Of a stretch of DNA of 37,767 nt, positions 12,279-35,951 are shown piece after piece. The position numbers and the translations under genes are program-made. The notes beneath the pieces are model-generated. The model ran no database searches, had not been told where the DNA came from, and worked only from the letters and a program-made list of their open reading frames with translations. The stretch lies in the NCBI GenBank assembly GCA_018061585.1, contig JAGOTU010000001.1:1-37767 (forward strand), in the 5' to 3' direction. Each line of letters starts with the position of its first letter. Position 1 is the stretch's first letter. This DNA comes from Minisyncoccota bacterium. Its GTDB lineage: Bacteria > Patescibacteriota > Minisyncoccia > Phycocordibacterales > UBA2100.

Positions 12279-13397
12279 TTACGCAGCGAGCGCCGCTTTC
12301 GCCATAGCGGCATTGCTCCATTCGGGCAAATGCGTCACGTCCTCGACGATCCAGCCGTCAGGCATGCTGATCACTTCGGAGAGGTCGTTCATCTCGACCT
12401 CGAGCTTCACGATGCCGAGCGATTTCCACGGTTCGGACTTGTAGATATCCACTTCGAAGGTGCGGTCTGCAAATGGAAACCGATACCGTGTCTTCAGTAT
12501 CGTCCGTCGCGTGGGATCAGCATCCCCCAGAAACTCCTCATACTGCTCAAGCGTGAGCGGCGGATATTTCGGCTCCGTCACGCTGCCCACCACTCCCGTG
12601 TCAGACTTGTGCGTGTAGTGATACGACGTCTCACCTTCGAGCGTTTCCGAACGAACGCGACGAGCACCGGTGTCGACGCCATGCGGATTCAGATACGTCT
12701 GCACGATTTCGATCATTGCCGCGTCACGCGGAATGAACGCCATCGTGAAGTTCTTGATGAGGAACCTTCGTTCGTTCTCGAGCGGTATCGGCATATGCAG
12801 AACCCTTCCTAATGCGCGCTTGGCGCGTTGCATTTTCGTCTTGAAGTCAGTCGAATTATCGATGACCGACAAGTGCGGATGTCCACGCCATGCGTGGCGC
12901 GAAGCCGTATCGAGCACACGCGCCTGTTCGATCCCCTCTGTCCTCGTCGTGCTGTTCTCCAGCGACTCCTGCGTGTAGAACGCTTCGGCACCGTCTGCTG
13001 CTGTGACCAGATGAATCACCATCAGGTACCCCAGCATCAACTGTACTCGATTCGTCCCGCGCTCGTGTAGCAATTGCGCGAACATTTCTTCGCCGCAATA
13101 TGCTTCGCAATCCGGAGCGCCGCGGTCCACCAAGAGCACGGCCTTCTGGATCCCGCTCTTGAGTATGACCGCTTTGTATCTGCGGATGCGCGCCTCATTC
13201 GCTCGGAGTACGCGCCGCTGGAATGCTTCGATACCGAGGTCCCACGGAGTTACTCCCGCATTGATCAGTATTGTTGCCGCTTCGGGTACTACGATCGCAA
13301 TGATCCCAAACCGCAGGAGCCACTCGATGACCTCCTTCATAAACGATGATTTCCCCGCACACGGGCCGCCACTTATGGCTATCAACGGTATGTACAT
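12279..13397 (-). CDS. Fusion protein: N-terminal P-loop NTPase (AAA_28/NadR-kinase-like) + C-terminal CYTH (triphosphate tunnel metalloenzyme) domain
   Basis: The Walker A motif SGGPCAGKSS lies at the N-terminus. The CYTH signature ExExK-like LENERRFLIK begins at about aa 207 of the ORF, followed by beta-rich repeats. I chose the ATG at 13397 (GAGGGAG with 6-nt spacing) rather than 13403. Confidence 0.7.
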   Translation of the reverse strand: MYIPLIAISGGPCAGKSSFMKEVIEWLLRFGIIAIVVPEAATILINAGVTPWDLGIEAFQRRVLRANEARIRRYKAVILKSGIQKAVLLVDRGAPDCEAYCGEEMFAQLLHERGTNRVQLMLGYLMVIHLVTAADGAEAFYTQESLENSTTRTEGIEQARVLDTASRHAWRGHPHLSVIDNSTDFKTKMQRAKRALGRVLHMPIPLENERRFLIKNFTMAFIPRDAAMIEIVQTYLNPHGVDTGARRVRSETLEGETSYHYTHKSDTGVVGSVTEPKYPPLTLEQYEEFLGDADPTRRTILKTRYRFPFADRTFEVDIYKSEPWKSLGIVKLEVEMNDLSEVISMPDGWIVEDVTHLPEWSNAAMAKAALAA

Positions 13398-20393: not shown

Positions 20394-20465
20394 GGCCCTA
20401 TCGTCTATCGGTTAGGACACATCCTTCTCAAGGATGGAAGCGGAGTTCGACTCTCCGTAGGGTCA
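20394..20465 (+). tRNA. tRNA-Glu (anticodon CTC)
   Basis: A cloverleaf was folded by hand: acceptor GGCCCTA/TAGGGTC, anticodon stem CATCC/GGATG with loop TTCTCAA, and T-arm CGGAG-TTCGACT-CTCCG. No CCA is encoded. Confidence 0.85.
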
Positions 20466-20520
20466 AAGCAAAAGCATTGGAGACTGCAAAAGCAGTCTCT
20501 TTTGCTTTGACCCTACGGAG
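20453..20520 (+). repeat. 22-bp perfect inverted repeat that includes the last 13 nt of tRNA-Glu, with a nested hairpin
   Basis: CTCCGTAGGGTCAAAGCAAAAG (20453-20474) is the exact reverse complement of 20499-20520. An inner hairpin GAGACTGC-AAAA-GCAGTCTC lies at 20480-20499. Confidence 0.85.
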
Positions 20521-20529
20521 GAAGGGGTC

Positions 20530-20583
20530 GGGAAACCTGTCTGGTTTCCCGTGGAGGAAGGTTGGGAAAACCGTGGGTTTCCC
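20530..20583 (+). repeat. Two tandem GGAGGAAGG + hairpin units (double-hairpin repeat, copy A)
   Basis: The hairpins are GGGAAACC-TGTCT-GGTTTCCC (20530-20550) and GGGAAAACC-GT-GGGTTTCCC (20564-20583). They are related to 26119-26186. Confidence 0.6.
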
Positions 20584-20599
20584 AGGCCGTAAGGGTCAA
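20581..20599 (+). repeat. Direct near-copy 1 of the tRNA-Glu 3' end
   Basis: CCCAGGCCGTAAGGGTCAA compares with the tRNA 3' end CCGTAGGGTCAA (20455-20466). Confidence 0.6.
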
Positions 20600-20674
20600 C
20601 CAAATATTTCCGAACGGCGGCGAGGAAATTATTGTGGCTCACATAAAAACGCAGTGTCAGCTTCCATAGAGTGT

Positions 20675-20693
20675 CCCAGTCCGTAAGGGTCAA
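20675..20693 (+). repeat. Direct near-copy 2 of the tRNA-Glu 3' end
   Basis: CCCAGTCCGTAAGGGTCAA matches copy 1 at 18 of 19 positions. Confidence 0.6.
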
Positions 20694-20789
20694 AGATAAT
20701 ATTCGACGACCGCGAAATAGTATGCGTCGCCGAATCGAATGCGTTGATATACATGATGAGTCAGTGAGGAGTTCGCGGCCGGCGTGACG

Positions 20790-30893: not shown

Positions 30894-31002
30894 AGCGAAA
30901 TGGTAACAGATGTATCTCTCCACAGAAATAGCCGGGTACAGGCGTTTGTATGTCCGGAAAATAAAGTCAGCCAACACTTCGTGTTGTCCTCGTTATTTTT
31001 TG

Positions 31003-31073
31003 TGGACCTACGGGGAGTCGAACCCCGACCTGTTCCATGCCATGGAACCGTTCTACCGCTATACTATAGGCCC
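31003..31073 (-). tRNA. tRNA-Ala (anticodon GGC)
   Basis: Hand-folded: acceptor GGGCCTA/TAGGTCC with the G3:U70 identity pair, anticodon loop ATGGCAT, and T-arm CGGGG-TTCGACT-CCCCG. The D-stem has a mismatch. No CCA is encoded. Confidence 0.75.
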
Positions 31074-31196
31074 GTTCGCTCTGCATCCTATCAAATACAC
31101 GGGTCGATTCAAAAGCTGTGCGCACAACCCTTAATTGACGTCATCATTCATGACGTCTACACTCGAACGACTACTCGAATAGATGTATATATTTTC

Positions 31197-33356
31197 ATGC
31201 AACGAAACAGTTACCGGATCGTGACCGCTGTACTTGTGACGTCTGTCATTACCACTCTAGTGTGGCTCATTCTACCGGCAACGCCTGCCGCTGCGCTCGG
31301 TGAGAACAATAGTGAACTGGATATTACATTTATTAGCCAGGGGTATTCGGATTTCGGCATCTTTCATTCGGATGTGCAGCGCTTTACCGAACATCTGCTC
31401 GCGATCGAACCTTTCAAAAGCCGAACTTCCCAGATCACGGTGCGTTCCGTCGACAATACGATAGACCTCATCTGCGGCACTGCGGGTTCCGTACCGGAAT
31501 GTAATCAGGCCAATGCGATCGCGGCGGTCGAGGCGAGTGGCACACCCTACGACAAGATAGTCGTACTGTGGAACAGTCCGCAGAATTCGGGAGGACGTGC
31601 GAAAACAACAGTCGCAACCGTGTATAACGGCGCCGACGGACACAAGACCTTTGTCCACGAGTTCGGTCACCTGCTCGGCCAAATGCGCGATGAATACACT
31701 GCCATACAGGGATCAGGTGCCATGTCCGGCTCATATGAAGGCAACTGCTATATGGGTTTGCCGCCAGCCTCCGCATGGCAGAGCGTGGCGTTGCGTGACT
31801 ACGGTATGGGGTGCATCTTCGCCAACTGGGCGCGGCCCTCGAAGAACAGTATTATGTTCAACCCGTACACCTCGACGTACTTTGACGTTGTGTCTCAGAG
31901 CATGCTCAATCAACAGTTCGACCTCTATGCGGGACCGTACTCTGACACGATTGCGCCGTCCGTAACTATTGTCGACCCTGTCGCGTCGTCGACAGTCTCC
32001 GGAAGAGTCACTATCACGTCGGCGATCTCAGATAACTCTGGCATCGTACGGGCGGAGCTTTGGAAAGACGGCGTTCACTACACGACCGGATACGATGCGC
32101 CCTTCAGCTTTACGTGGGACCCTGCGCTCAATGACCATTCGTCACATACTTTCCAAGTTCGTGCGTACGACGTTGCGGGCAATAGCGGGATCTCGGAGAC
32201 TGTCACAGTGAACATAGACGGCGGTGTGGCCGATACCGAAAAACCGATGGTGTACATGGTATCCCCCGGCAATGGTGCAGTGGTCTACGGCACGAGCAGC
32301 ATACAGCTCTACGTGACCGACAATTCAGAATCCTTGGGGACAGCGTACTTCTATGTCGATGGATCTCTGGTCGGCACCGATACCACCGCACCGTTTACCT
32401 TTAGCTGGGCGACGACGAATTACGCACAAGGATCGCACATGCTGCACGCATTCGCATATGATCTGGCCGGCAACTATGGGGTCACATCTCCCGTGACAGT
32501 GACAGTGGATAATGTCGCTCCGACTATCACGCTCACAAACCCGGTGAACGGCGCCGTGCTTTCGGGAACTACCACAATGCAGGCCGTCGCGTCAGACGAT
32601 CCCGGTCCGCTCTCGCGAGTTGAATTCGTACTCGATGGAAATGGTGTCGCCATCGATACGATCGCCCCGTATGAATTCCAATGGGATACCAAGACAGTGC
32701 TGAACGGTCAACATACGCTGTTCGCGCGAGCGTACGATGCTGCGCGATACACCGACACCGCTCTCGTGACCGTGACCGTACAGAACAATCCGCCTGATAC
32801 AACGAATCCAACGGTCTCGATCTCGTCCCCGACGCAAGGCGCAACGATCCAGGGCACATCGACCGTGACAGTCGCCGCGAGCGACAATATAGCCGTCACC
32901 AAGGTAGAGCTCTATCGAGACGGCGTACTGAGCGATACGGATCTCTCGTCGCCGTTCAGTTTCTTGTGGGATACAAAAACTGTGATGAACGGCGTTCATT
33001 CACTTGTCGCCAAGGCGTTCGACGCTGCCGGCAATACTGCTTCGAGCACCTCTCGCTCGGTAACGGTAAGTAATCCCGACACCACCCCGCCCTCCGTTAC
33101 CATAAGCGCGCCCCTGAACGGCGCGACCGTGCCGAGGCGCACGAATGTGACGATCCAAGCGACAGCGTCGGACAACGTCGCCATACAAAAAGTGCAGTTC
33201 TACGTCGGAACGACGCTCAAATGCACCGACACGACGCTACCGTATTCATGCGTGTGGAAAACGCCGTCGACCCAAGGCGCGCAAACGCTCAAGGCTACTG
33301 CAACTGATACATCCAACAATACAAAAACGACGCAGATCTCTGTGAACGTCAATTAG
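31197..33356 (+). CDS. Secreted M64-like zinc metallopeptidase fused to five tandem Ig-like domains
   Basis: A signal or anchor is present (IVTAVLVTSVITTLVWLILPATPAAA). The HEFGHLLGQMRDEY motif (HEFGH at 31656-31670) resembles peptidase M64. From about nt 31950 there are five ~93-aa repeats (PxVxIxxPxxGAxVxG...APFxFxWDT...GxHxLxAxAxDxAGN). The ORF-track N-terminus (30900-31196) just reads through the tRNA. Confidence 0.7.
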   Translation: MQRNSYRIVTAVLVTSVITTLVWLILPATPAAALGENNSELDITFISQGYSDFGIFHSDVQRFTEHLLAIEPFKSRTSQITVRSVDNTIDLICGTAGSVPECNQANAIAAVEASGTPYDKIVVLWNSPQNSGGRAKTTVATVYNGADGHKTFVHEFGHLLGQMRDEYTAIQGSGAMSGSYEGNCYMGLPPASAWQSVALRDYGMGCIFANWARPSKNSIMFNPYTSTYFDVVSQSMLNQQFDLYAGPYSDTIAPSVTIVDPVASSTVSGRVTITSAISDNSGIVRAELWKDGVHYTTGYDAPFSFTWDPALNDHSSHTFQVRAYDVAGNSGISETVTVNIDGGVADTEKPMVYMVSPGNGAVVYGTSSIQLYVTDNSESLGTAYFYVDGSLVGTDTTAPFTFSWATTNYAQGSHMLHAFAYDLAGNYGVTSPVTVTVDNVAPTITLTNPVNGAVLSGTTTMQAVASDDPGPLSRVEFVLDGNGVAIDTIAPYEFQWDTKTVLNGQHTLFARAYDAARYTDTALVTVTVQNNPPDTTNPTVSISSPTQGATIQGTSTVTVAASDNIAVTKVELYRDGVLSDTDLSSPFSFLWDTKTVMNGVHSLVAKAFDAAGNTASSTSRSVTVSNPDTTPPSVTISAPLNGATVPRRTNVTIQATASDNVAIQKVQFYVGTTLKCTDTTLPYSCVWKTPSTQGAQTLKATATDTSNNTKTTQISVNVN

Positions 33357-33909: not shown

Positions 33910-34065
33910 TCGGGCCGCCGGGGAGCGGCGTGACTCACTAAACTCGCAAGCTCGTTAAGTGGTCACTGCCCTGGCTCGCGGTCGCTGCGCGACATCGCTC
34001 CGCCTTTCGATCCCCGACGCATAGCACGCAGGTGCTATGCTTCGACGTCATTCACTTCGTTCATG
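33910..34065 (-). other. tRNA-Pro(GGG) trailer module: inverted T-arm copy + direct copy of the tRNA 3' end
   Basis: TCGGGCCGCCGGGGA (33910-33924) is identical to 34066-34080, the last 15 nt of the tRNA. The 16-mer CGGCGTGACTCACTAA lies at 33926-33941. An inverted T-loop/T-stem TTCGATCCCCG lies at 34006-34016. There is no ORF. Confidence 0.6.
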
Positions 34066-34136
34066 TCGGGCCGCCGGGGATCGAACCCGGTCTACATGAC
34101 CCCCAGCCATGCGTACTACCGGTATACTACGGCCCG
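34066..34136 (-). tRNA. tRNA-Pro (anticodon GGG)
   Basis: Hand-folded: acceptor CGGGCCG/CGGCCCG, D-stem GTAT/GTAC, anticodon stem CATGG/TCATG with loop CTGGGGG, and T-arm CCGGG-TTCGATC-CCCGG. No CCA is encoded. Confidence 0.8.
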
Positions 34137-34221
34137 TAGTGAGCAGTAATATTAAAGCTTGCTTCAATATTATGCGAATGCCCGGGCCGCACGAATGTTG
34201 GGCCCGTTTGGCGACAAGATA

Positions 34222-34234
34222 TTTTGTCGGGCTG
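34222..34234 (-). repeat. Direct copy of the 3' acceptor strand + trailer of tRNA-Pro(CGG)
   Basis: TTTTGTCGGGCTG (34222-34234) is identical to 34298-34310. It lies 76 nt downstream of the tRNA end, in the Pro-Pro spacer. Confidence 0.5.
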
Positions 34235-34302
34235 ATTGGGTGAGGAGCGAGTTTGCGTAGCTCCGCAAGACCCGTCTACACGCTTGCAATGAAATCTTTT
34301 TG

Positions 34303-34373
34303 TCGGGCTGCTGGGAATCGAACCCAGTCTACACGCACCCGAAGCGTGCGTACTACCGGTATACTACAGCCCG
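34303..34373 (-). tRNA. tRNA-Pro (anticodon CGG)
   Basis: Hand-folded: acceptor CGGGCTG/CAGCCCG, anticodon stem CACGC/GCGTG with loop TTCGGGT, and T-arm CTGGG-TTCGATT-CCCAG. Confidence 0.8.
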
Positions 34374-34473
34374 GCAAAAAGACTCCATGCAATGCTTTGC
34401 CGACTTGCCCGGCAAAAAACCTCATCGCTCGAGTATCCTAACAAAGAAAATAACGGTTGAAAAATAACGAGTG

Positions 34474-34547
34474 TGCACCATTCAGGATTCGAACCTGAGA
34501 CCTTTCGAATGTGAATCGAACGCTCTAACCAACTGAGCTAATGGTGC
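34474..34547 (-). tRNA. tRNA-Val (anticodon CAC)
   Basis: Hand-folded: acceptor GCACCAT/ATGGTGC, D-arm GCTC-AGTTGGTTA-GAGC, anticodon loop TTCACAT, and T-arm TCAGG-TTCGAAT-CCTGA. Confidence 0.85.
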
Positions 34548-34642
34548 GTTCGGAGAATAATACTGTATGCGTCCCCCAGCGCAAAAGTCAGCGTTTCGCT
34601 TGACCTTGACTTTATACTGATAGTGTGGCTATATAGCGTTCT

Positions 34643-35125
34643 ATGGTAATCGTACCCACCTGGATGCGCGTTGCGCTGGCCTCGGGCATTTGCTTTGCCG
34701 CAGGTGCTATTTCTGCGCTATATATGACACCCCAGTCTCTCGGCTGGTTCGACTCTTTGGATCGCCCGGTCTTCTTTGCGATGCCGCTACCGGTCATCTT
34801 TTTCGTCCTTGTAGTTTCCTACGCACTCATGTCATTGGCATCGAGTCTTATGTGGATACATGATCCGAAACCGTGGGACTTCCGCGGGTGGATGCCTCTC
34901 TTTTTTACGCACCTATTAATGCAGATGGGGTGGCTCATCCTATTGTTCGCCTACAATGTCGTATTCTTGTCGATGCTCATCGCATTTGTGCTTGCCACAT
35001 ACGTATTCATCCTTACTGCCGCGGCCTGGCAGCGACACAAGATCGCCTTCTGGCTTTTGCTCGCATACCTAGCCTGGACGCTGTACGCGCTCGGCATGAA
35101 TATCGCGATCTGGACGTTGAACTAA
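34643..35125 (+). CDS. tspO: TspO/MBR-family (tryptophan-rich sensory protein-like) membrane protein
   Basis: The 160-aa product has 5 hydrophobic spans. The motif WFDSLDRPVFF...YALMSLA resembles the TspO pattern WY..L.KP.w.PP...Y..M..A. Confidence 0.55.
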   Translation: MVIVPTWMRVALASGICFAAGAISALYMTPQSLGWFDSLDRPVFFAMPLPVIFFVLVVSYALMSLASSLMWIHDPKPWDFRGWMPLFFTHLLMQMGWLILLFAYNVVFLSMLIAFVLATYVFILTAAAWQRHKIAFWLLLAYLAWTLYALGMNIAIWTLN

Positions 35126-35131
35126 ACTACA

Positions 35132-35338
35132 TGTGGACCTGGGGGGAATCGGCGTGACTCACTAAGCGGCGAAAGGAATCGGTCAAGCGCTCGGTTTTGC
35201 GTCGTCACGCAATACCTCCGCCTGACCACGCTCGGGCATCCCCATCTACTGATGGGTCCCCAGCCCTCGCCTTCGATTCCCCCAAACCCCTACAAAAATA
35301 TAGTCGCCCACCGCTTCGCGATGTCCTCGTTATTTTTG
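35132..35338 (-). other. tRNA-Ala(CGC) trailer module: inverted T-arm copy + direct copy of the tRNA 3' end
   Basis: TGTGGACCTGGGGGGAATCG (35132-35151) is identical to 35337-35356. The 16-mer CGGCGTGACTCACTAA lies at 35150-35165. An inverted T-loop/T-stem TTCGATTCCCCC lies at 35272-35283. There is no credible ORF. Confidence 0.6.
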
Positions 35339-35409
35339 TGGACCTGGGGGGAATCGAACCCCCGCCTCCGCAATGCGAATGCGGTGTAATACCACTTTAC
35401 TACAGGCCC
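35339..35409 (-). tRNA. tRNA-Ala (anticodon CGC)
   Basis: Hand-folded: acceptor GGGCCTG/CAGGTCC with G3:U70, D-arm GTAA-AGTGGTA-TTAC, anticodon stem CCGCA/TGCGG with loop TTCGCAT, and T-arm GGGGG-TTCGATT-CCCCC. Confidence 0.85.
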
Positions 35410-35436
35410 TTGGTGGAAAATTTTATACCACCAATG

Positions 35437-35469
35437 CTAAAAAGAAAACTCCGCTTTCGCGGAGTTTTC
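35437..35469 (-). terminator. Intrinsic terminator of greA
   Basis: On the minus strand, the hairpin GAAAACTCCGC-TTTC-GCGGAGTTTTC is followed by TTTTTAG. Confidence 0.8.
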
Positions 35470-35483
35470 TTTCACTTGATCAG

Positions 35484-35951
35484 CTATTTTATATTGACGA
35501 TCTTGTACTTCTGCTGGCCTTTGGGGGTCTCAAAAGTGAATGTGTCCCCTTTCTTCTTTTCCATAAGCGCGCTTCCGAGCGGTGAGAGGTGCGAGATCTT
35601 TCGCTCCTGCATATTTGCTTCCGCCGAACCCACGATCTCGTAGGTATGCTCGTCCTTTTCGCCCTGTTTCTGGATGGTGACGAAGTTACCGAGAGAAACC
35701 GTGTTGCCTTTGGTGTGCTCGATGATGCGTGCGTGCGATAGCTGTTCCTCGATCACGCGAATGCGATCTTCGGTCGCAGCCTGCAGATTGCGGGCCTCCT
35801 CGTATTCGGCGTTCTCAGAAAGATCGCCAAGCGAACGGGCGTATTCCAACTGCTCCGCGATCTCGCGGCGTCGGACGGTCTTAAGATGTTCCAGCTCAGT
35901 CGTCAGTTCGTCGAACTTCTCCTTGCTCAAATAGTTTGTTTCGTCTGCCAT
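35484..35951 (-). CDS. greA: Transcription elongation factor GreA
   Basis: It has an N-terminal coiled coil (LEHLKTVRRREIAEQLEYARSLGDLSENAEYEEA) and a C-terminal FKBP-like domain. I trimmed the start to the ATG at 35951 (155 aa). Confidence 0.9.
   Translation of the reverse strand: MADETNYLSKEKFDELTTELEHLKTVRRREIAEQLEYARSLGDLSENAEYEEARNLQAATEDRIRVIEEQLSHARIIEHTKGNTVSLGNFVTIQKQGEKDEHTYEIVGSAEANMQERKISHLSPLGSALMEKKKGDTFTFETPKGQQKYKIVNIK

Follow-up and report, generated by a model that had tools for sequence, protein, structure and literature searches.

A 205-nt gene-free segment behind the tRNA-Ala(CGC) gene has, in our estimate, an even chance of being a chimeric copy of a small, non-coding and non-autonomous mobile element that belongs to a family residing in the tRNA and tmRNA tails of Kaiserbacteria/Paceibacterota. 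The segment lies in a stretch of 37,767 nt, all of which was analyzed and which is referred to as the window. The family exists, and its copies show a common bracket anatomy, a fold with covariation and strand specificity, presence/absence patterns bounded by repeats, and tandem copies. We infer that the elements move by recombination at a repeated segment, X, and are active as a folded single strand, of either DNA or RNA.

A sequence-only reading of the window had noticed that the 3' end of tRNA-Ala(CGC) recurs downstream of the gene. This 20-nt direct repeat is real. TGTGGACCTGGGGGGAATCG has two exact copies in the window (35132-35151 and 35337-35356), far above chance, as none is expected from 100 shuffles. 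The copy at 35337-35356 consists of the final 18 nt of the tRNA and the trailer CA. The other copy follows the stop codon of tspO (ORF 34643-35125, Pfam TspO_MBR) after 6 nt, as had been described, and the inverted T-arm copy TTCGATTCCCCC at 35272-35283 is also exact. The module consists of the following parts.

35338 to 35409, minus strand: tRNA-Ala(CGC), the host gene (ARAGORN; Rfam tRNA, 70.3 bits).
35337 to 35356, minus strand: host segment X, which begins at C56 of the T loop and includes the discriminator and CA (direct repeat).
35292 to 35336, minus strand: spacer S, AAAAAUAACGAGGACAUCGCGAAGCGGUGGGCGACUAUAUUUUUGU, with the hairpin CAUCGC-GAA-GCGGUG at 35309-35323.
35284 to 35293, minus strand: weak anti-strand X'a (GUAGGGGUUU), an imperfect partner of the acceptor 3' copy CAGGUCCAC when the complete trailer is folded with RNAfold.
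35274 to 35283, minus strand: 5' strand of P1 (X'b), GGGGGAAUCG (inverted repeat; fold).
35234 to 35266, minus strand: core domain I, GGGC-UGGGGA-CCCAUC-AGUA-GAUGGG-GAU-GCCC, flanked by GCGA/GAGC junctions (fold).
35181 to 35227, minus strand: core domain II, GGUCAGGCG-GA-GGUAUUGCGU-GACG-ACGCAAAACC-GAG-CGCUUGACC (fold).
35172 to 35285, minus strand: type-E module, as delimited by its match to the family's covariance model R1 (25.6 bits, E = 0.0056).
35175 to 35181, minus strand: the type-E module's own P1 3' strand, CGAUUCC (R1 match).
35150 to 35174, minus strand: 25-nt remnant of the 3' end of an A1-type module, UUUCGCCGCUUAGUGAGUCACGCCG, containing a 16-mer shared with the module behind tRNA-Pro(GGG).
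35132 to 35151, minus strand: second X copy, CGAUUCCCCCCAGGUCCACA, which bounds the unit at its 3' end, at a distance of 6 nt from the tspO stop.

The second X copy comprises the T loop from C56, the T-stem 3' strand, the acceptor 3' strand, the discriminator and CA. X'b is the inverse of T-loop positions 56-60 and of the T-stem 3' strand; in the X'a region, relatives have 7-12 perfect pairs. On the minus strand, the module folds with -75.6 kcal/mol (z = -5.4). Two previously proposed helices, the closing stem GGGGGAAUCG/CGAUUCCCCC and the hairpin CCCAUC-AGUA-GAUGGG (35241-35256, inside core domain I), are present in the minimum-free-energy and the centroid folds. The proposed pairing of GCGTGAC (35152-35158) with GTCACGC (35204-35210) is absent from the fold; the orthologous modules at loci L067 and L018 support a local hairpin within domain II instead (UUGCGU-GACG-ACGCAA). 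GCGTGAC is part of the 25-nt remnant, which stems from a second module type and which both L067 and L018 lack. This remnant is bounded by the repeated CGAUUCC, and the window copy is therefore considered chimeric. The 16-mer within it, CGGCGTGACTCACTAA, had correctly been assigned to both the Ala and the Pro(GGG) modules (exact at 35150 and 33926). Domain I is kept, with sequence changes, in L067, L055 and L004, and the helices of domain II are retained in L067 despite a different sequence. Spacer S is homologous to the trailer of tRNA-Ala(GGC) (below 31002), where its hairpin has compensatory changes (CAACAC-GAA-GUGUUG); no consensus terminator was scored in spacer S. The module is not the 5' leader of a downstream gene, as it faces a convergent gene.

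The window contains four such elements, behind Ala(CGC), Pro(GGG), Pro(CGG) and Glu(CTC). The latter two tRNAs are also bracketed, which had been overlooked in the sequence-only reading.

33910 to 34064, minus strand: A1-type module behind tRNA-Pro(GGG) (34065-34136) (repeat, fold, R1).
34221 to 34283, minus strand: family-B remnant behind tRNA-Pro(CGG) (34302-34373), with a partial copy of that tRNA's own end (repeats, fold).
20466 to 20700, plus strand: trailer of tRNA-Glu(CTC) (20394-20465) (-63.8 kcal/mol, z = -4.75).

The Pro(GGG) module consists of a spacer with the motif GAACGAAGUGA, the CUGC hairpin H0 (34020-34041), the 5' strand of P1 (34008-34016), the core (33926-34007) and the X copy UCCCCGGCGGCCCGA (33910-33924), so that it ends in the 3' end of its own tRNA (TCGGGCCGCCGGGGA, 33910-33924). 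It is matched by R1 at 33918-34019 (33 bits, E = 9e-5) and folds with -51.3 kcal/mol (opposite strand: -42.2). The Pro(CGG) remnant, GCGUGUAGAC-GGG-[30-nt hairpin insert replacing the T loop]-CCCA-AUCAGCCCGACAAAA, is a deletion derivative of the type seen at L043 and L080. The Glu(CTC) trailer carries a terminator hairpin, a two-hairpin core, and an X copy (CCGUAAGGGUCA, 20586-20597) with another copy near 20686. Its X' (UGACCCUACGGAG, 20508-20520) forms a 21-bp palindrome with the tRNA end and trailer. As had been noted, there is no integrase in the window: none of its 30 ORFs codes for a recombinase.

The covariance model R1 was built from relatives and used to search 1.19 Mb of Kaiserbacteria/Paceibacterota DNA. 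These sequences were selected by the presence of GreA rather than by the motif, and the loci are tRNA-rich. The search returned 53 copies, every one of which is located 12-209 nt downstream of a tRNA on the same strand. A motif scan of metagenomes added well over 80 further copies, which cover about 20 amino-acid tRNA types and tmRNA. A same-strand upstream tRNA was found for 87 of the 124 metagenome matches; about 25 of the others are at contig edges or behind tmRNA. The family is thus exclusively linked to tRNA/tmRNA tails, in sense orientation. The suggested search for further tRNAs followed by copies of their own 3' ends gave hundreds of cases with about 20 tRNA specificities and tmRNA. 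An assembly artefact is ruled out, because the same architecture recurs in more than 150 independent assemblies. The family is large and apparently undescribed, and its hosts are Kaiserbacteria-type (CPR) bacteria. Full-text literature searches on structured RNAs, tRNA-like and mobile elements of CPR bacteria, Patescibacteria, Parcubacteria and Kaiserbacteria, and on miniature integrative elements, yielded no description of such modules. When the window and nine loci were compared to Rfam 15 at gathering and permissive thresholds, only tRNA and tmRNA were matched, and the modules themselves did not rise above noise. The sub-threshold matches to tmRNA_permuted (23-33 bits; gathering score 47), which extend over the tRNA end and the spacer, reflect only the order of tRNA 3' end, spacer and complementary 5' strand, and this identity was rejected. 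A scan of IMG/VR with the 5' core motif gave 12 matches, all due to chance and within coding DNA, so that, at least for this motif, there is no sign of a phage-borne parent.

Several other identities were also rejected. A split, permuted or intron-containing tRNA does not apply because a complete tRNA is always located upstream. A retroviral-type primer-binding site does not apply because the copy has the genomic trailer CA, and has CCA only where CCA is encoded. The absence of a reverse transcriptase speaks against a retron, and hammerhead or other known ribozymes are dismissed as there are neither core motifs nor Rfam matches.

The layout of the modules is constant: a tRNA with X, a spacer, X', a two-domain core, and X again. 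X begins at C56 of the T loop, includes the discriminator and takes in 1-3 further nt; its exact Watson-Crick inverse, X', is often interrupted by a CUGC hairpin (H0). In 61 of the 87 metagenome modules, the 13-nt 3' end of the host tRNA is copied with at most two mismatches (mostly none). Exact copies of tRNA ends outside of tRNA genes were collected for 435 tRNAs, and 88 of the 91 copies are found 0-400 nt downstream. Identity begins exactly at C56 in 46 of 74 cases, with the tRNA-specific nucleotides 59-60 being included, and the acceptor copy is paired to X'a in 37 of 61. Tailoring to the host is also evident from X'b, where column 9/105 covaries with tRNA nucleotide 59 family-wide. Loci L123 and L180 differ at this nucleotide, and X'b and the X copy follow in both. 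In L103 and L194, X' tracks the tRNA rather than the decayed copy, so that the X':copy helix is not always kept. The repeat has a length of 18-21 nt, in some copies up to about 80 nt. Its left end is fixed at C56, and its right limit varies from 1 to 65 nt past the discriminator. T-type copies are perfect palindromes of 20-30 bp, with the right arm after the U tract.

The stem formed by X' and X spans the discriminator and trailer, and the core takes the place of the T loop, which is absent. In Ala modules, as judged by eye without a formal count, X'a is mostly a perfect complement, which results in A3:U70 rather than G3.U70. The module segments are called neither by ARAGORN nor by the Rfam tRNA model. 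Modules resemble tRNA-like domains (tmRNA TLD, permuted tmRNA, minihelix) in having an acceptor-like stem of at least 7 bp stacked on a T-stem-like helix. They differ by the missing T loop, by A3:U70 usually replacing G3.U70, and by a helix that includes discriminator and trailer. Thus, the stem mimics the DNA duplex or forms a long helix, and does not imitate a tRNA. It had been proposed that the module may be an RNA which mimics the T arm and the acceptor 3' strand; the stem itself, a Watson-Crick duplex of the gene end, is retained from this proposal, but tRNA mimicry is not.

In the core, which folds on one strand only, two hairpin domains are joined in a three-way junction; it has tandem G.A loops, and its loop sequences are fixed. 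The loops of the modules are CUGC, AGCA and GACG, which are neither GNRA nor UNCG. When all subfamilies were aligned with MAFFT, only P1 and P2 emerged, and the structure is clear only within subfamily A2. For this subfamily, 22 of the 32 pairs have compensatory changes, and the suggested check for covariation of the paired segments thus gave a strongly positive result. Cells that can pair amount to 94%, compared to 35-41% after sliding the partners, and none of 500 shuffles reached the observed values. The sense (tRNA) strand folds better in 61 of 61 copies, with a mean advantage of 8 kcal/mol. By our own tally of pair types, core helices contain about 10 G.U cells versus 3 A.C cells. Many nucleotides of the core, including its junctions, are invariant. 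Those that are also unpaired are more reminiscent of a functional RNA or of a site bound by protein than of an integron attC, the sequence of which is poorly conserved beyond short terminal boxes.

Presence and absence were both found at orthologous Ala sites, between species. The tRNA-Ala(CGC) gene directly adjoins tspO in L014 and L035, while a spacer, module and X are found with the same flank in L022, L024, L033, L034 and the window. One orthologous site holds different core types in different species. The known empty sites are from other species. An exact-protein look-up of TspO, made as a strain-level comparison, returned only the source contig (GCA_020049755.1) and a 729-nt fragment, and no pair of empty and occupied sites at the strain level was seen in it. 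Exact tandem units occur in L195 and L202; extra pieces past the last X are units truncated at their 3' end, not at their 5' end, and 3' truncation is found in most truncated units. Two loci from one metagenome, L164 (Pro-UGG) and L194 (Ser-GCU), have cores that are 100% identical over about 115 nt while their brackets are locus-specific. These cores probably belong to one genome. Gene conversion among resident copies can also produce identical cores in locus-specific brackets, without transposition. The same repeats flank kilobase-scale gene cargo at two loci, L207 (HATPase_c_3 and a C5 methylase) and L133. No recombinase is encoded in either cargo, and the 205-nt unit of the window is too small for one. 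The sequence-only reading had named a lack of further copies and of covariation, or an ordinary conserved spacer without empty-site polymorphism, as observations that would speak against it. What was found are further copies, covariation, and both empty and occupied sites. Its proposal of a miniature gene-less family mobilized in trans is supported with respect to a family with different tRNA fragments, to empty and occupied sites, and to tandems; the mobilization in trans is putative.

The cargo loci and the repeats might also indicate decayed integrase islands or prophage remnants, with attL and attR left after an interior deletion and without function or mobility of their own. This explanation is already disfavoured, and we consider it highly improbable. 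The direct repeat has the required form, since one that spans a tRNA/tmRNA gene from its T loop to its 3' end is reportedly the classical signature of P4-type integrases, and plain partial tRNA copies without an insert do exist (L002, L003, L018, L076), as do cargo islands with the same repeats. Random deletion, however, would not leave a conserved core of 100-130 nt with 22 covarying pairs at about 20 tRNAs. An inverse copy of each tRNA end is not accounted for either, and the identical cores at two tRNAs of one metagenome and the lack of modules in IMG/VR by the 5' core motif also argue against it. The attL/attR signature that had been pointed out earlier, if taken as a plain integrase remnant, leaves unexplained the structured and strand-specific core, the tailored inverse copy and the approximately 20 targets per core family.

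The fold may instead act at the RNA level, as a cis-acting structured RNA in the tRNA 3' trailer (a three-segment switch or a processing module). This is possible, but the chances are rather against it. X' would pair with either the tRNA 3' end or the downstream X, and the core would be the sensor or protein-binding domain that makes the choice, the output being maturation or decay of the tRNA precursor or of a read-through RNA. In a variant, the X':X helix would be a handle for RNase III or RNase P/Z, which would set free a stable small RNA that consists of the core. Duplication would account for the spread of the elements. Alternative pairing requires just such a triple identity (tRNA function fixes X, X' is the perfect complement including discriminator and trailer, and the copy is the same as X), and it is kept in the diverged relatives L123 and L180. 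This explanation is also consistent with the stability of the sense strand in 61 of 61 copies, with the tandem G.A motifs and the many invariant junction nucleotides, and with the excess of G.U over A.C cells. No terminator or promoter was predicted between the tRNAs of the window and their modules, so that co-transcription is possible there. Across the family, 28 of 61 copies are located behind a canonical terminator-like hairpin, which counts against an RNA function; with about half of the copies in this position, neither "always co-transcribed" nor "never transcribed" is a clean description. A terminator after the X copy was found in 6 of the 34 modules without a spacer terminator versus 15 of the 25 with one, which does not discriminate between the models. 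The perfect T-type palindromes with a right arm past the U tract, loops that are neither GNRA nor UNCG, and the behavior of X' in L103 and L194 also do not fit. If the module were a regulator, one would expect particular tRNAs to retain it, and the patchy distribution among sister species, the tandem arrays and the several unrelated cores within the same bracket therefore count against this function as well.

Known RNA systems share some of these features. As in attenuator and riboswitch platforms and in T-box leaders, there are two identical flanks, each of which can pair with the segment between them (1:2 vs 2:3), this segment is next to a conserved folded domain with G.A motifs, and there is tRNA specificity. 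Modules, however, are located behind a tRNA gene and not in front of an ORF, they are not followed by a regulated gene, and, unlike in T-boxes, pairing involves 18-20 nt of the tRNA 3' end and not the anticodon and NCCA. Guide RNAs of mobile elements (TnpB reRNA, CAST homing crRNA, IS110 bridge RNA) also have a scaffold that is followed by an 18-20 nt target-identical 3' segment, and CAST homing guides also match tRNA genes. Modules differ from these in that there is no effector gene, the "guide" has its pairing partner at the 5' end of the scaffold, and the unit is 12-60 nt from its target rather than within a transposon.

The combination of a fixed left limit (C56) and a variable right limit (1-65 nt) would also be expected from a SINE-like retroelement, for which a read-through module RNA would be copied by a reverse transcriptase encoded elsewhere. 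Priming would occur at a bottom-strand nick (T55|C56), where the 3' end of the element, ...CCGA(U/A)U, could pair with T-loop DNA. An imprecise second nick in the top strand further downstream would yield a duplication with one fixed and one variable end. The 3' end of the element does mimic T-loop positions 56-60, the fold is RNA-like and strand-specific, and the window copy contains a 5'-truncated A1 remnant with a short CGAUUCC repeat. We nevertheless regard this as improbable. There is no reverse transcriptase among the ORFs of the window or in the cargo islands, the pieces past the last X are truncated at the 3' and not at the 5' end, terminators are found upstream of half of the copies, and the target-tailored X' is left unexplained.

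For the mobile element which we favor, the bracket would be an address: the folded X':X would rebuild the duplex of the 3' end of the target tRNA. Recombination between the X of the element and that of a tRNA would insert or remove a whole unit (spacer, X', core and one X). The left limit of the exchange would be T55|C56, within the TCGA palindrome of the T loop, and the enzyme would be supplied in trans and recognize a generic T arm. The tRNA would be left intact and the repeat could be reused, which would explain the tandem arrays and the occasional cargo. This model has weak points. Between unlike tRNAs, a conservative crossover within X would leave a tRNA that is chimeric and dead, the model gives no account of how X' is re-tailored at a new tRNA, and, in contrast to a fixed att core, the repeat ends at varying positions on its right side. 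The invariant unpaired nucleotides of the core and the alternative of gene conversion also count against it, and neither circular nor excised forms were seen.

The proposed element resembles P4-type tyrosine-integrase islands and their derivatives without an integrase (CIMEs). These also target the 3' part of tRNA/tmRNA genes and leave the tRNA intact, have a direct repeat from the T loop to just past the gene end, and show tandem accretion, occasional cargo and assumed mobilization in trans. As in classical attL/attR islands, a direct repeat flanks the module next to an intact tRNA, and occupied and empty sites exist between species. In contrast to such islands, modules are 110-200 nt long and gene-less, their core is conserved and structured, and the target end is present as an inverse copy. 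One module core family serves about 20 tRNA species and tmRNA, while integrases are normally restricted to a single target; the repeat varies in its right limit, and no recombinase is found inside or beside the unit. Modules also share traits with MITEs, REPINs and other small palindromic repeats, being small, gene-less, multi-copy, hairpin-forming and non-autonomous. However, their terminal inverted repeats equal the local target and differ between loci, they occur only behind tRNA/tmRNA genes and in one orientation, and, unlike in MITEs, the duplication is long (18-21 nt or more) rather than short and of fixed length.

Integron cassettes and the attP(+) hairpin of CTX phage (a Xer-dependent IMEX) have the same order of X, content, X', variable structured center and X. 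They also share a strand-specific fold with a stem that rebuilds a duplex recombination site, arrays (for modules: L195, L202, L133, L207), and homogeneity of cores within a genome. Like attC sites, modules have a strand-specific imperfect hairpin at the 3' end of each unit. They lack attI, a Pc promoter and IntI, and there is no intI in the window. They also lack R''/R' boxes (RYYYAAC/GTTRRRY) and dif-like sites. Their stem is the sequence of each host tRNA, the sequence of the center is strongly conserved, and most "cassettes" are empty. By analogy, it is tempting to speculate about a CPR tRNA-tail cassette system, in which folded X'-core-X would be recombined at T55|C56 by a generic recombinase that recognizes the T arm and acts in trans, a programmable target-copying hairpin replacing attC. 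Such a system would be able to accumulate empty units and, from time to time, to take up genes for defence or other functions (L207, L133). We propose this tentatively.

tRNA and tmRNA genes are classic landing pads of mobile DNA, and the known users have their own integrase and one target each. Here, in a major lineage that is uncultivated and has tiny genomes, a single gene-less structured family is found in the tails of tmRNA and of essentially all tRNA species, and each element has an inverse and a direct copy tailored to its target. If the elements move as proposed, there would be an unknown trans-acting enzyme for a generic T arm, and a recombination site that copies its target and is thus programmable. 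A fold that works as RNA would represent the first switch on tRNA maturation to be encoded in a trailer; a three-segment bracket that gates the maturation of individual tRNAs would be as unprecedented as the cassette system. In both cases, the modules are a conserved and structured nucleic acid, abundant at 53 copies per 1.19 Mb of GreA-anchored, tRNA-rich loci, for which Rfam has no family. Because they give rise to pseudo-tRNA fragments and spurious ORFs, they matter for how CPR genomes are annotated, and they are a potential marker for strain-level variation.

The module behind tRNA-Ala(CGC) ends in a copy of the 3' end of its own tRNA gene. Of the window's six tRNAs, four (Ala(CGC), Pro(GGG), Pro(CGG) and Glu(CTC)) carry brackets of this kind. 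Relevant features of the window include:

35338-35409, minus strand: tRNA-Ala(CGC)
34221-34283: partial self-copy of tRNA-Pro(CGG), behind that tRNA, with a 30-nt hairpin in place of the T loop
31002-31073, minus strand: tRNA-Ala(GGC), with its trailer at 30940-31001
20466-20700: trailer of tRNA-Glu(CTC), with the palindromic "T-type" layout

The exact 20-mer TGTGGACCTGGGGGGAATCG has only two occurrences, 35132-35151 and 35337-35356, where none is expected by chance. On the tRNA strand it reads CGAUUCCCCCCAGGUCCA followed by CA, and so covers the gene end from C56 of the T loop, through the 3' strands of T stem and acceptor, to the discriminator and two trailer bases. This direct copy had been described in the sequence-only reading, as had an inverse T-arm copy (35272-35283), a 16-mer common to this module and that behind tRNA-Pro(GGG) (at 33926 and 35150), and the location of the distal copy 6 nt from the tspO stop; all were confirmed, the sequence matches being exact. 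The tRNA-Pro(GGG) module likewise terminates in an exact copy of its own tRNA's 3' end (33910-33924). The proposed hairpin at 35241-35256 and the closing stem both appear in the predicted fold (-75.6 kcal/mol, z = -5.4, for the minus strand; -67.2 for the plus strand). The proposed pairing of 35152-35158 with 35204-35210 is unsupported; orthologous modules have a local hairpin there. The window copy is chimeric: behind a type-E core with its own CGAUUCC end come the terminal 25 nt of an A1 core and a second CGAUUCC, which runs on into the copy of the tRNA end. A 148-aa TTG ORF (35197-35643, plus strand) crosses module and tRNA and is presumably spurious.

The modules share a general order. The tRNA ends in a segment here called X and is followed by a spacer (S), the first half of the inverse of X (X'a), a hairpin (H0), the second half (X'b), a two-domain core and X again. 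The spacer carries an intrinsic-terminator-like hairpin in 28 of 61 copies and the motif UGAACGAAGUGAG in many others. X'a is complementary to the acceptor 3' strand plus discriminator and one or two trailer bases, X'b to the T-stem 3' strand and T-loop positions 56-60. In H0 the stem covaries and the loop, CUGC, is conserved. The two hairpin domains of the core have conserved junctions (GAA(A/C)G(G/C)CGGAGC ... GCGAG(C/G)C(A/G)G(G/U)G ...). The T-type layout is found behind the window tRNA-Glu and in four loci of relatives (L006, L007, L015, L027). Here, a perfect 20-30 bp palindrome is built from the tRNA end, its trailer, a CUGC or terminator hairpin, the inverse trailer and the inverse tRNA end; behind it come a core of the same kind and a short copy (e.g., CCACAAA). 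One bracket accommodates several unrelated cores (types A1, A2, E, B, C, G and a mini-hairpin). The mini-unit GGA-UGUCGUG-CGNAGA-CACGACG-CCACAAAA, which recurs in the tRNA-Ala trailers of L010, L025 and L079, combines this bracket with a minimal core: an inverse tRNA end, a single hairpin, and a copy of tRNA end and trailer. The tRNA-Pro trailers of L002, L003, L018 and L076 hold plain, coreless partial tRNA copies with an intact T loop, which start in the variable region or the T arm, reach to the 3' end and lie behind a small hairpin. They may represent landing pads or precursors, or be left over from another class of integration.

In the window's tRNA-Glu(CTC) trailer, a terminator hairpin is followed by an exact inverse of the tRNA's last 13 nt and trailer, then by a core with two hairpins and by two direct 3'-end copies. 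The tRNA's own 3' end and trailer form, with their inverses, a 21-bp perfect palindrome around the terminator hairpin. The core differs from the others (hairpins GGGAAACC.../GGGAAAACC..., then two copies of CCGUAAGGGUCAA), and L006 has a similar core start, GAAAGGGGUCGGGAAAAC. The tRNA-Ala(GGC) trailer (CAAAAAAUAACGAGGACAACACGAAGUGUUGGCUGACUUUAUUUUCC-GGACAUAC) is homologous to the tRNA-Ala(CGC) spacer, a small GAA-loop hairpin showing compensatory changes, and looks like a coreless unit truncated after about 55 nt. Its terminal GGACAUAC resembles the start of the L055 anti-strand GGACCUAC. An 818-aa Big_7/Peptidase_M64-like ORF (30900-33356, plus strand) has its listed start upstream of tRNA-Ala(GGC) and reads across that tRNA, so its true start must be later.

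The repeat has one fixed limit. In 46 of 74 exact copies, identity with the tRNA starts exactly at C56 and includes the tRNA-specific positions 59-60; the preceding base is C or G where the tRNA has T55. On the right, identity usually ends 1-3 nt past the discriminator and includes CCA where it is gene-encoded. At about ten loci it continues for 9-65 nt and repeats the beginning of S, H0 or sometimes the core, a further unit truncated at its 3' end; whole units are repeated in L195 and L202. X' is a perfect Watson-Crick complement, mostly giving A3:U70 in the Ala modules inspected, and matches the tRNA's X rather than the deletion-bearing copy in L103 and L194. It also covers discriminator and trailer. 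The stem therefore reproduces the duplex of the gene end, not a tRNA.

Covariation supports the fold. An alignment of A2-type copies from 13 or more tRNA types has 32 predicted pairs, 22 with compensatory double changes; 94.3% of its cells are paired versus 35-41% when partners are slid, and none of 500 shuffles reached the observed values. The closing stem on the X'b side (P1) covaries with the host tRNA, T-loop nucleotide 59 included. It is very improbable that the modules are inert remnants of ordinary islands: a conserved, covarying core and a tailored inverse copy contradict this. In all 61 modules the tRNA-sense strand folds more stably than its complement (mean 8.0 kcal/mol), in part because of conserved tandem G.A loops; folding with RNA energies cannot tell RNA from single-stranded DNA. 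By our own tally, core helices have about 10 G.U cells versus 3 A.C cells. None of the hairpin loops is of the GNRA or UNCG type; they read CUGC, AGCA and GACG. The modules match no family in an Rfam search.

All sequence data are metagenome-assembled. By exact match of the TspO protein, the window was assigned to contig JAHZTO010001895.1 of GCA_020049755.1. A GreA-anchored scan of GTDB genomes gave 80 loci, and the named lineages are all CPR (Candidatus Kaiserbacteria, Paceibacterota, Parcubacteria, Patescibacteria, Nomurabacteria and, by TPA label, Saccharibacteria). Behind 40 of their tRNAs (Ala, Pro, Arg, Val), within 70-250 nt and outside other tRNAs, lies a copy of the tRNA's own last 14 nt. 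A metagenome scan with a degenerate core motif returned at least 120 contigs. Among the 124 motif matches listed, 87 have a same-strand tRNA ending at most about 250 nt upstream, covering about 20 amino-acid specificities, and in 61 of these 87 the host's 13-nt 3' end follows the core, mostly without mismatch. The remaining 37 listed matches comprise about 12 chance matches in coding DNA and otherwise real modules at contig edges or behind tmRNA. Modules behind tmRNA (ssrA) occur in L121, L150, L178, L190 and L093, bracketed by a copy of the tmRNA 3' end (...GUCUCCACA); Rfam confirmed the tmRNA in L178 and L121. A covariance model (R1), built from 23 A2-type copies, was run on 1.19 Mb, the window plus the 80 GreA-anchored loci, whose choice did not depend on the motif. 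There were 53 matches at E <= 0.1, with rough E-values from a shortened calibration. All but one of these sit 12-209 nt downstream of a same-strand ARAGORN tRNA, and the 53rd sits behind an N-masked tRNA-Val; the window modules behind tRNA-Ala(CGC) and tRNA-Pro(GGG) are both among them. Runs of N mask tRNA genes in some contig records (L015 at 13190-13340, L069), which concealed this tRNA-Val and part of one module. Since A1, E, B, C and G cores have no models of their own, the copy numbers given are minimum values.

The tRNA-Ala(CGC)/tspO junction exists in two states. The tRNA adjoins the tspO stop in L014 and L035, these empty sites being from other species and not other strains, while spacer, module and X precede the same tspO flank in the window and in L022, L024, L033 and L034, with a core type that varies by species. 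There are also signs that cores are exchanged between host tRNAs: on two contigs of one metagenome, those behind tRNA-Pro(UGG) (L164) and tRNA-Ser(GCU) (L194) are 100% identical over about 115 nt, with locus-specific S, X'a, H0 and X. A cis-acting RNA, in which X' toggles under core control between the tRNA 3' end and a decoy copy, or its helix is a processing handle, would neatly account for the triple identity and the sense-strand fold. We consider it possible but doubtful, as it fits poorly with a family in which half of the copies have terminators in front, the T-type is palindromic, the distribution is patchy and many cores are unrelated. Species differ in how tRNA-Ala(CGC) and the Val-Pro-Pro block are oriented with respect to GreA (L003, L006, L007 and others versus window 34065-35409): both are co-directional with GreA in the window, L006 has the block inverted, and L003 has tRNA-Ala(CGC) convergent with GreA. 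Rearrangements seem to have their breakpoints at tRNA genes that bear these inverted and direct repeats.

For 435 tRNAs, exact copies of the 13-nt end outside tRNA genes number 88 at 0-400 nt downstream, two at >1 kb and one upstream. The two distant copies enclose cargo. In L207 (tRNA-Gln at 201-272; X at 259, 437 and 3607), an HATPase_c_3 protein and a C5 DNA (cytosine) methylase lie between an A2 and a C-type module. In L133, the cargo is an ORF of 440 aa that has a hydrophobic segment at its N terminus and matches nothing in Pfam. No recombinase, transposase or reverse transcriptase was found in these islands or in the window, in agreement with the earlier statement that the window has no integrase. 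A SINE-like, target-primed mechanism would fit a repeat with one fixed and one variable limit and an element whose 3' end resembles the T loop; it is improbable, lacking a reverse transcriptase and leaving X' unaccounted for.

For the mechanism, we favour, at about an even chance, a non-autonomous element that recombines through X, its folded strand presenting the target duplex, and is moved in trans. It would recombine with the tRNA gene with a left exchange limit between T55 and C56, in the TCGA palindrome of the T loop; the folded single strand X'-core-X would present the target as a duplex copy, and a putative enzyme encoded elsewhere would recognize the generic T arm and move the element. 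This would explain the exclusive location, the orientation, the intact tRNA, the tandem units, the same-repeat cargo, the perfect-complement stem, and the fact that a circular form (S-X'-core-X) would be a rod with nearly all bases paired. It leaves unexplained the retailoring of X' for a new tRNA, the many invariant unpaired core bases, and the variable right repeat limit. The searchable literature yielded no description of these modules. In working, integrative elements of tRNA genes are nearest, the module being such an element stripped to its attachment region, but these have an integrase and a single target, and the module has neither. In layout, integron cassettes (attC) and the folded CTX phage attP are nearest, but the module lacks R boxes, attI and intI; it also lacks the conserved terminal inverted repeats of MITEs and belongs to none of the Rfam families. 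Its kind, a non-autonomous element targeting tRNA genes, is already known; the chance that its mechanism is categorically new is considerable, though well below even. Location, bracket, fold, and gain and loss together require a non-coding element tied to tRNA and tmRNA tails which is mobile, or at least often gained, lost and exchanged, and to which the bracket gives the identity of its host.
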